DNA of 39,202 nucleotides from a virus (taxonomy: Duplodnaviria; Caudoviricetes), in IMG/VR virus record IMGVR_UViG_3300032321_000191, positions 1 through 39,202 of that record. One strand, 5' to 3'. This document shows, one piece after another, positions 1 through 39,202 of the stretch. Position numbers and translations under genes: made by a program. How positions within the stretch are numbered: position 1 is the first letter of the stretch; each line of letters starts with the position of its first letter. The notes below the pieces were generated by a model. The model searched no databases, was not told the DNA's origin, and saw nothing but the letters and a program-made list of their open reading frames with translations.

Positions 1-507
1 AAATGCGACTGCGGTAGACCTGAATACACACTCGATCATTACAACTTCAAACACTTTAAAAGTACCCGGTGCAATCCGTGCGCTCTTGCAAAGTCTCGCG
101 AAACATATAGGAAAAGCTATTGGGTATACGCAGACGCCATGTCAGATGACCTGCACCGCGAACGGTTACTTAACCGCATATCCGCAGCAATCACCCGATG
201 TCACAATCCCGAAAACCGTATGTACCCGTCTTACGGGGGCAGAGGTATATTTGTCTGCGAAGAATGGCGGAATGACAGGCGAGCGTTCTTACGGTATGTC
301 CAATTACTCGATGGGTGGGACGTACCAGAGTATGAAATGGACCGGACCGATAACGACAAAGGGTATGAACCCGGAAACATCAGGTTTGTTCCGCGAGGAG
401 ATAACCTTAGAAACCGTAGGAAAATACCTGTCATGCAATCAAGAATACAAAAACTTGAGGCAGAACTTGATGACCTACGATCTCGCCTTCGCGGGGCCAC
501 AGAATAG
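1..507 (+). CDS. HNH homing endonuclease, nested out of frame within the intein (5'-truncated)
   Basis: Frame 1 is open from nt 1: KCDCG...RCNPC Cys motifs, RCHNP....YPSYGGRGIFVCEEW, MDRTDNDKGYEPGNIRFV...NLRNRR, a typical phage HNH signature. Stop TAG 505-507. Confidence 0.88.
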   Translation, partial: KCDCGRPEYTLDHYNFKHFKSTRCNPCALAKSRETYRKSYWVYADAMSDDLHRERLLNRISAAITRCHNPENRMYPSYGGRGIFVCEEWRNDRRAFLRYVQLLDGWDVPEYEMDRTDNDKGYEPGNIRFVPRGDNLRNRRKIPVMQSRIQKLEAELDDLRSRLRGATE

Positions 508-550
508 ATTTACGGTTCTAACAGATGCTGGCCCCATCATTGTTCATAAC
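2..550 (+). mobile_element. Intein in PolA motif B (C-terminal part; N-terminus outside window)
   Basis: Block F/G-like TYDLAFAGPQNRFTVLTDAGPIIVHN ends His-Asn at 545-550, followed by Cys (551-553) as the +1 nucleophile at the start of CGYG. Confidence 0.9.
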
Positions 551-1135
551 TGCGGATATGGCACAGGCTGGAAAAAACTTCAGAGTGAACTCAAAGCTGC
601 GGGCGTAACCCTACCCGACCATGAGTGCAAGGAGATGATCCGGGTTTACCGTAGTGCCTCAGATAAAATCATCAAGCTATGGCGGGAAGCGCAGTCTGCG
701 TTGGTGTCAATGATTAACGCCGAGGACTACAAAATTGGTGTCCAGAACTGCATGAAGTTTCATCACGACGGGTTCATCCTTCCGTCTGGGTACAAGATCC
801 TGTATCCCAACATGGGGTTTGAGGAAGAAGACGGCAACCAAAGCTTTCACTACGTTGGGCGTAAAGGCAAGACTTACTTATGGAGCGGTAGCGTTGTCGA
901 AAACATCGTGCAGGGGCTGGCCCGCTGTGTCATATCAGATCAGATGCTGTTGATCGCTAAAAGGTATCGACCTGTTTTGACAGTCCATGACGCGGTTGCT
1001 ATAGTAGTACCCCAAGATGAAAAAGACGAAGCAATCAAATTCATTGAAAAGTGCATGAGTACAGTGCCAGTGTGGGCACAAGGGTTGCCGGTCGCCTGTG
1101 AATCCGGTCACGGTTACAGTTACGGAGATTGTTAA
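2..1135 (+). CDS. polA: Family A DNA polymerase, C-terminal part (5'-truncated by window), intein-containing
   Basis: Frame 2 is open from nt 2 to TAA 1133-1135. After the intein end it reads CGYGTG (end of motif B), ILPSG..I.YP, ENIVQGLAR and motif C VLTVHDAV, ending W..GLPVACE.G.G.SYGDC as in phage PolA. Confidence 0.93.
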   Translation, partial: NATAVDLNTHSIITTSNTLKVPGAIRALLQSLAKHIGKAIGYTQTPCQMTCTANGYLTAYPQQSPDVTIPKTVCTRLTGAEVYLSAKNGGMTGERSYGMSNYSMGGTYQSMKWTGPITTKGMNPETSGLFREEITLETVGKYLSCNQEYKNLRQNLMTYDLAFAGPQNRFTVLTDAGPIIVHNCGYGTGWKKLQSELKAAGVTLPDHECKEMIRVYRSASDKIIKLWREAQSALVSMINAEDYKIGVQNCMKFHHDGFILPSGYKILYPNMGFEEEDGNQSFHYVGRKGKTYLWSGSVVENIVQGLARCVISDQMLLIAKRYRPVLTVHDAVAIVVPQDEKDEAIKFIEKCMSTVPVWAQGLPVACESGHGYSYGDC

Positions 1136-38342: not shown

Positions 38343-38371
38343 AACATAGCATATAAATCTTTAGGGGGCAA
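38343..38371 (-). promoter_or_regulatory. Sigma70-like promoter with extended -10
   Basis: TTGCCC (38371-38366), 17 nt ending in TGC, TATGTT (38348-38343). Confidence 0.5.
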
Positions 38372-39202
38372 TCCATAACCAACGTTTTTTACCGCAGTCA
38401 TAAATCCGTCGCGCCCCCATCAGGTAGGTCATCTCTGCTTCTGTCCGGGTATCTATGCCAGCGTCGAATATTTCATCGACCCCATGCTCATCTAACCGCT
38501 TCTGCAAACCCCCCCTTTGGTAGTGGGATTTTGGGCGTACCCCTGTTTTCTTGCTCCAAACTTGGTAATCCGGGGCTATTTCTTCGTCAAGCACAAACCC
38601 AAGCGTTGAGTACATACCCCCATCGAAGTACCGATTGTCTGAAAATGACTTTACCTGTAACGGCTTATGTTCCGTGATGAATGCTCTAAAAAGCCTAGAC
38701 GCGCCTCCTGCTACATTAACGCGGGTAGCATACCTAGCAAGAGTCCAAACACGATTCTTGGCCCCCACACCACGATCATTACTGCCAAACGAAAACCGCA
38801 TACAGGCGACAAGTTTTCCACGCCAATATAACCCGTAGTGATCCCCACTACCTGCGCCACCTTGGGGGTGGTAACGCTCATAGAAATCAGCAGCTTCTTG
38901 TGTGGTGGGCGTGCCTAACTGGCATTTACGCGCCATTAATTTACCTCGTGATTTACCTACTATATTTCGTAGCAGACGGCGGATGGCCGTACTACGCTGT
39001 TCCCACTCCGTCTCATAAACGGTAATCAGGCGGATACCCTTTTCTTTGCAGGAGATATACTTTTCAAAATGCTTGTGTTTACCTTCCTTTTCCGCCTTTG
39101 TATCTCCAAAAGAATGCCAGTACATACCGCAGTATTCAACGGCGATTTTTTGTTCTGGCAGGTAAATATCTATCTCTTTTGGCTTAAGGATCGTGCGGTC
39201 GC
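38361..39202 (-). CDS. Hef-like PD-(D/E)XK homing endonuclease (5'-truncated by window)
   Basis: Frame open to the window end: KEIDIYLPEQKIAVEYCGMYWHS, GIRLITVYE.EW, ARKC, LVACM.F, L.RYA, GGASRLF, SFSDNRY..G.MY..LGF, IYDCGK.RW. Confidence 0.82.
   Translation of the reverse strand, partial: DRTILKPKEIDIYLPEQKIAVEYCGMYWHSFGDTKAEKEGKHKHFEKYISCKEKGIRLITVYETEWEQRSTAIRRLLRNIVGKSRGKLMARKCQLGTPTTQEAADFYERYHPQGGAGSGDHYGLYWRGKLVACMRFSFGSNDRGVGAKNRVWTLARYATRVNVAGGASRLFRAFITEHKPLQVKSFSDNRYFDGGMYSTLGFVLDEEIAPDYQVWSKKTGVRPKSHYQRGGLQKRLDEHGVDEIFDAGIDTRTEAEMTYLMGARRIYDCGKKRWLWIAP

Follow-up and report, generated by a model that had tools for sequence, protein, structure and literature searches.

The DNA analysed here, referred to below as the window, is a whole phage contig of 39,202 bases, the left end of which falls inside an element inserted in the gene for a family-A DNA polymerase (polA), so that the 5′ third of the element is missing. 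On the plus strand, frame 2 is stop-free from base 2 through the PolA stop codon at 1133–1135. The initial annotation had read this frame as running up to a canonical intein end that resumes PolA motif B, and this reading was confirmed: the C-terminal splicing blocks F and G occupy 473..550 (+ strand; intein end TYDLAFAGPQNRFTVLTDAGPIIVHN), with the block F Asp at 479–481 and the terminal His-Asn at 545–550, and are followed by the PolA C-extein (551..1135, + strand), which begins with the +1 Cys of the motif B sequence CGYG (551–553). The C-extein matched the Pfam family DNA_pol_A with an E-value of 4.5e-5, under the cut-off as a fragment. Upstream of the intein end, positions 2..463 (+ strand) form an intein-frame linker which, going by its composition, a homologue model and pairwise identities, appears to be a stop-free shadow of a nuclease gene and is predicted to be disordered. 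It is indeed mostly rich in Thr, Ser and Gly, as first described, these residues making up 31% of the 154 codons preceding the intein end versus 18% of the C-extein.

Because the contig starts within the element, its 5′ half was reconstructed from homologues. A protein search with frame-2 residues 1–190 returned 61 long polymerases, 59 of which parse with an intein in one continuous frame, mostly of 277–296 amino acids; P0032 and P0043 fall outside this set, P0043 being a 157-residue mini-intein. The closest homologous intein is 85% identical to that of the window. In these homologues the intein begins in the same frame as the linker and not in frame 1, which settles the frame check proposed in the initial annotation. 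The C-terminal features of a class 1 intein (block F Asp, terminal His-Asn and a +1 Cys, Ser or Thr) are present in the window, and its N-terminal features (Cys or Ser and the block B TxxH), which lie off the contig, are present in the homologues; C1, T55, H58, D258, H280 and N281 are invariant across 51 homologous inteins. A HINT fold was predicted for homologue L021 with a pLDDT of about 96 outside the linker, while residues 94–245 scored below 50, such that the predicted HINT domain surrounds a disordered loop of 150 residues. A fold search with this model returned intein structures at the top (E-values of 3e-3 to 1e-2), and an intein profile search matched the Mtu RecA intein (E-value 3e-5). 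By every sequence feature examined, the element is a class 1 intein. An endonuclease in the intein frame, the canonical layout of a full intein, was not found; the nuclease lies in the −1 frame only.

Frame 1 of the window, the −1 frame relative to the intein (equivalent to frame 3), is open over 1–504 and stops with TAG at 505–507. It encodes the 3′ two-thirds (1..507, + strand) of an HNH-like endonuclease ORF of a His-less, DR..Y..N type, assigned on its PHROG match, invariant residues and structural model. Its product matched the HNH endonuclease family phrog_374 with an E-value of 7e-30 and an endonuclease VII PHROG weakly; profile searches of Pfam and NCBIfam gave no match for either the nuclease frame or the intein frame. 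Two Cys pairs (C2 and C4, C24 and C27), a Y-G-x-R-G motif and residues D114, R115, Y122, N126, N135 and N138 are invariant in 50 nuclease sequences, the latter six residues forming a putative active site (340..414, + strand) whose role is proposed by reference to PacI-type chemistry. The Asp and Asn of the HNH/His-Me finger metal-ligand pattern are present as the invariant D114 and N135, fold matches being weak, but the His expected as general base is absent, its place being taken by Arg115 in 50/50 sequences. The “clear HNH nuclease” of the initial annotation therefore keeps its own stop and its family but lacks the catalytic His. The predicted structure of the nuclease has a mean pLDDT of 88.6, and its coiled-coil tail overlaps the first 11 codons of 473..550. 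The spacing of D..Y..N appears to match that in PacI. In a fold search PacI was the top-scoring nuclease, but the match was weak (Z 5.2, rmsd 3.0, 83 aligned residues, 16% identity) and tied with an unrelated chain; the Foldseek match to PacI had an E-value of 1.7, and sequence searches against solved structures gave no nuclease match. PacI (PDB 3M7K; His-Me finger group 20) uses a loop tyrosine in place of the His, according to two reviews (PMC5714182, PMC4081073). The protein described here resembles PacI in having no His and an invariant loop Tyr, Y122; PacI differs in being a restriction enzyme that is not intein-borne. Since the catalytic His is absent and the match to PacI is weak, nuclease activity is something that we only infer for this protein.

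The open second frame is only moderately unlikely in the window taken alone, as it was retained in 264 of 20,000 random synonymous recodings, and the homologues therefore carry the weight of the argument for dual coding. A scan of viral DNA gave 122 loci, 80 of which were kept; 73 contain a complete intein, 70 of them full-size, and seven are cut by a contig end. As proposed from the window, the intein frame is kept stop-free: no stop was found in 73/73 complete viral inteins. The nuclease motif lies in the −1 frame in 70/70 full-size copies, and this frame is open for at least 239 codons in 68 of them, L025 and L076 each having one internal stop, inside the nuclease core; the +1 frame is never open for more than 131 codons in these 70 copies. 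A metagenome scan gave the same pattern. When the search was started from the nuclease, each of the 16 closest matches was found to overlap such an intein in its −1 frame (13 assigned by script and three by eye), one with a damaged intein end and one truncated; no intein end was detected adjoining 64 weaker matches. A viral scan queried with the C-extein gave no match, and scans for 5′ DNA of the window's own family found no close relative, the best hits being 68–69% identical to the N-terminal intein part of the nearest proteins. In three short forms an in-register deletion has removed the nuclease core. Mini-inteins L087, L090, L094, L133, L138 and L145, which lost the core, retain in-register traces of N- and C-terminal nuclease codons.

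The integrity of the window sequence was examined against independent contigs. A Logan contig from run X1, possibly the source sample, matches 96–1500 with zero differences or gaps, and a variant contig from run X2 covers 1–1497 with 77 substitutions and no gap, so that no indel is present in the region 400–510 in which an assembly error had been thought conceivable. In the X2 variant, 27 of the 40 listed substitutions within 36–406 fall at the third (wobble) position of nuclease codons; the same 40 substitutions cause 10 amino-acid changes in the nuclease versus 30 in the intein frame, and stops in neither.

Selection on the second frame was assessed in an alignment of 53 copies (the 70 full-size copies minus three with short flanks, the remainder being collapsed at 90%), by counting the synonymous intein-frame choices able to create a −1 stop and the share of these realised. 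The share was 26–29% in the N-extein (184/639), intein codons 1–31 (79/278) and the C-extein (141/541), fell to 6/1788 in intein codons 32–265, and was 73/157 in codons 266–281. At the codon preceding the block F Asp, a −1 stop was realised in 0 of 53 chances. This avoidance in codons 32–265 indicates that the nested gene covers the greater part of the intein and takes in block B as well as the first half of block F. The overlap of the last nuclease codons with block F noted in the initial annotation is thus real, but the overlap is larger than had been claimed: about 230 codons, from around codon 32 to 265 of 281, are doubly coding, and these include codons for catalytic splicing residues. 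Within the linker, pairwise identity amounts to 0.50 in the nuclease frame versus 0.26 in the intein frame and, as judged from these aligned copies, the amino-acid constraint through the middle of the element lies on the −1 frame.

A separate start for the nested gene, raised at the outset as a point to check, is supported in the homologues by an ATG and a ribosome-binding site inside the splicing domain, at intein codons 32–34, where the −1 frame in relatives opens. In copies without Cys34, an ATG lies across codons 31/32 in 26/29 cases, versus 5/24 in copies with Cys34; where Val-Cys occurs at 33–34, the ATG is instead at 34 in 23/24, a complementary pattern with a p-value of 6e-7 that overstates independence, the aligned copies being related by descent. 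A second, hand-picked set, which may include near-duplicates of the first, has an ATG at codon 32 or 34 in 44/49 copies, while sister inteins with the W-D-G-x-x-W motif but without this nuclease have one at either site in 14/34, the −1 frame reaching a stop within 65 codons in all 34 of these. Pairing of the upstream sequence with the anti-SD averaged −7.9 kcal/mol versus −2.0 kcal/mol for 739 control ATGs, a difference partly forced by the W-D-G-E residues of the intein. Stops downstream of codon 32 were found as exceptions in L039, L064, L085, L283, L135, L195, L199 and L200, so that the nuclease start in these few lineages must be later. Four of the six closest relatives of the window read N-W or Q-N-W at codons 31–32 without Cys34, and P0004 reads D-W; given these residues, most of the closest relatives cannot have an ATG at 32 or 34, and would start elsewhere or at a TTG.

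We consider it probable that the locus comprises a motif B intein of a phage family-A DNA polymerase, together with a conserved HNH-like protein encoded in the −1 frame, likely from its own start, that is likely the homing endonuclease of the intein. Judged from the alignments, the layout is real, selected and widespread, and resembles a full intein with its endonuclease in a separate overlapping gene. Ribosomes reading polA would produce a precursor that splices out the intein, while other ribosomes would initiate at the ATG of intein codon 32 or 34, via the purine-rich site provided by the W-D-G-x-E codons, to yield a free nuclease of 240–260 amino acids. During co-infection this enzyme would cut or nick an intein-free polA at motif B, and repair would copy the element. 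The arrangement may go back to the insertion of a free-standing phage nuclease gene into a mini-intein, where the gene survived because the intein frame stayed open.

The strongest competitor, although we regard it as rather unlikely, is that the −1 protein, while produced and under selection, does not act as the homing enzyme of the site: it would lack the His, bind DNA or nick it in a general way and so benefit the phage, for instance against co-infecting phages, while the intein spreads by ordinary recombination. The missing general-base His with its invariant D-R, the weak structural support for the active site and the occurrence of the element in unrelated host genes, which would be hard for a strict site-specific cutter to reach, agree with such a role. 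However, PacI cuts without a His through its loop Tyr and Y122 is invariant here, the distribution of the element is patchy and recent-looking, and the closest nuclease matches lie without exception inside such an intein.

The other readings carry little weight. A programmed −1 frameshift out of the polA frame would fuse the nuclease to the N-extein and the first residues of the intein; ribosomal slippage usually leads into the −1 frame, which here is already open close to the intein start. We nevertheless hold this to be improbable, as a search for slippery heptamers from codons −20 to 75 in the 53 copies found one, in the extein, and no conserved slippery site, and as the complementary ATG pattern and its SD point to internal initiation. 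It is still less plausible that the insert is an intron, as the RefSeq record of phage SO-1 has it, where the nested gene of gp38/gp39 is listed but under a type I intron. Intron nucleases are free-standing ORFs, but the intein residues are invariant, an intein fold is predicted and the insert frame is never interrupted; no Rfam match, a group I intron core included, was obtained to an E-value of 0.1 in seven loci, a search that divergent introns can escape. An assembly error or a recent frameshift of an intein with an in-frame nuclease could be suspected from the window alone, which lacks the 5′ end, and from frame breaks in one old record (SS3e). This was rejected with near certainty, given that the independent contigs are gapless and that an in-frame nuclease occurs in no parsed intein.

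Several observations bear on mobility of the dual-coding intein. The intein-free polymerase P0062 is identical to the window's C-extein at 193/194 residues and reads K-T-I-T-L-G|C-G-Y-G with no insert, as expected of a precise in-frame insertion. By contrast, C-extein identity is only 53–60% for polymerases whose inteins resemble the window's most closely (56% for the carrier of the nearest intein). The near-identity of P0062 suggests recent homing. Of 658 cultured-phage records, 161 span the complete Ent1 region, and others match the flanks alone, at up to 95%; Jerseyviruses with and without the element share flanks at 95%. At E ≤ 1e-25 the nuclease has matches in 166 phage records, GenBank and RefSeq duplicates counted; these include Jerseyvirus and Dhillonvirus and are mostly unannotated, 145 being Salmonella phages and none an actinobacterial phage. 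Within motif B the element inserts at either of two Cys sites separated by four codons (L181, L182, L184 and P0111 versus the window). At the window's +1 position, 113 empty alleles have Cys (51), Ala (38), Leu (18) or Ser (6), and the choice of insertion site may thus depend on where a Cys is present. An SNF2-type helicase (L196:1919-4261) and a terminase large subunit (L283:186-2762) carry this −1 dual-coding intein as well.

Scripted scoring of 80 genome loci placed the nuclease in the −1 frame in 11 elements, in +1 in 31, absent in 17 and in-frame in 0, the intein end being unrecognised in 24 loci, three of which are −1 by eye. Sister inteins with the same splicing motifs and related nucleases in the +1 frame were seen in L214, L240 and other genome loci, in L206 and L213, and in L186 (APSE-1); those at motif B have about 310 amino acids and come mostly from Bacillota prophages, and others occupy a site further along the polymerase. 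In two nuclease-core trees, built on about 110 columns by quick methods and with six free-standing rows left out of the second, 60 of 65 −1 rows group with the window in one 96% clade and 16–17 of 17 Firmicutes +1 rows in another; APSE-like rows fall among free-standing nucleases in both, and stray rows differed between the trees, those in the first coming from mis-cut segments. These rough trees suggest separate nuclease lineages, and three captures may have taken place. A broader proposal is that His-less PacI-type nucleases were written over a single intein lineage on three or more independent occasions, using both of the alternative frames but never the intein's own, the −1 version borrowing splicing-domain codons as ribosome-binding site and start. 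This would define a class of tyrosine-dependent homing endonucleases whose out-of-frame expression is stable and selected rather than transient, hidden in more than 100 cultured Salmonella and E. coli phage records. We advance this combination tentatively and consider it less likely than not.

The layout is not unprecedented. In actinobacteriophage inteins an endonuclease VII-like enzyme is encoded in reading frame 3 (Gosselin, Arsenault and Gogarten, 2025; bioRxiv 10.1101/2025.01.02.630785). These share with the PolA element the strand, frame offset, stop-free structureless intein-frame linker and a proposed invasion by a free-standing nuclease, but differ in nuclease lineage and in polymerase host (Pol III alpha there, PolA here). 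The cyanobacterial DnaX intein has a +2-frame LAGLIDADG nuclease (Phillips, DeSimone and Gogarten, 2026; bioRxiv 10.64898/2026.09.14.751524, which cites Gorbalenya 1998). It is alike in its overlapping nuclease ORF with its own SD, selection on the nuclease frame and coexisting full, mini and empty alleles, but unlike in nuclease type (HNH-like here) and in residing in bacterial dnaX rather than phage polA. The ShiLan element, an out-of-frame HNH in phage methylases (PMC11855218), likewise hides a frame-3 HNH with its own start in an in-frame stop-free insert; it is without a splicing domain, whereas the PolA element is a complete intein. SO-1 gp38/gp39 and the vB_SenS-Ent1 gp37 intein carry the same −1 element (the Ent1 nuclease is 53.8% identical to the window's), inserted four codons earlier in motif B than in the window; the Ent1 record lists “splicing domains” only. 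APSE-1 P45/P46 belongs to the sister inteins: its insertion site differs, and its nuclease, the annotated P46, is a different one and lies in the +1 frame. No paper presenting the PolA element as a dual-coding intein was found in the literature searched, which left most subscription papers and bioRxiv supplements outside its range.

To the known out-of-frame intein nucleases the PolA element adds another type of nuclease, an overlap that reaches into catalytic splicing blocks, embedded start signals and tractable cultured phages. The published cases were called rare and were based on computation; here it is the norm across a large lineage, which also means that a gene is missing from many phage annotations. 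Cultured phages of laboratory hosts exist with and without the element, which makes translation, homing and His-less cutting directly testable.

Some minor observations were made alongside. In the SS3e record (L183) the polymerase is annotated as three genes because the reading frame is broken within the intein region, perhaps through sequencing errors. Within the window, a small HNH-like ORF, free-standing and with a D-H motif that includes a His (1930-2256, + strand; Pfam HNH E-value 7e-4, under the cut-off) lies between exonuclease and helicase genes. A second homing-endonuclease-like ORF (38361-39200, − strand; phrog_3339 with an E-value of 1e-70, and phrog_559) is cut by the right contig end, so that both ends of the contig break within nuclease genes.
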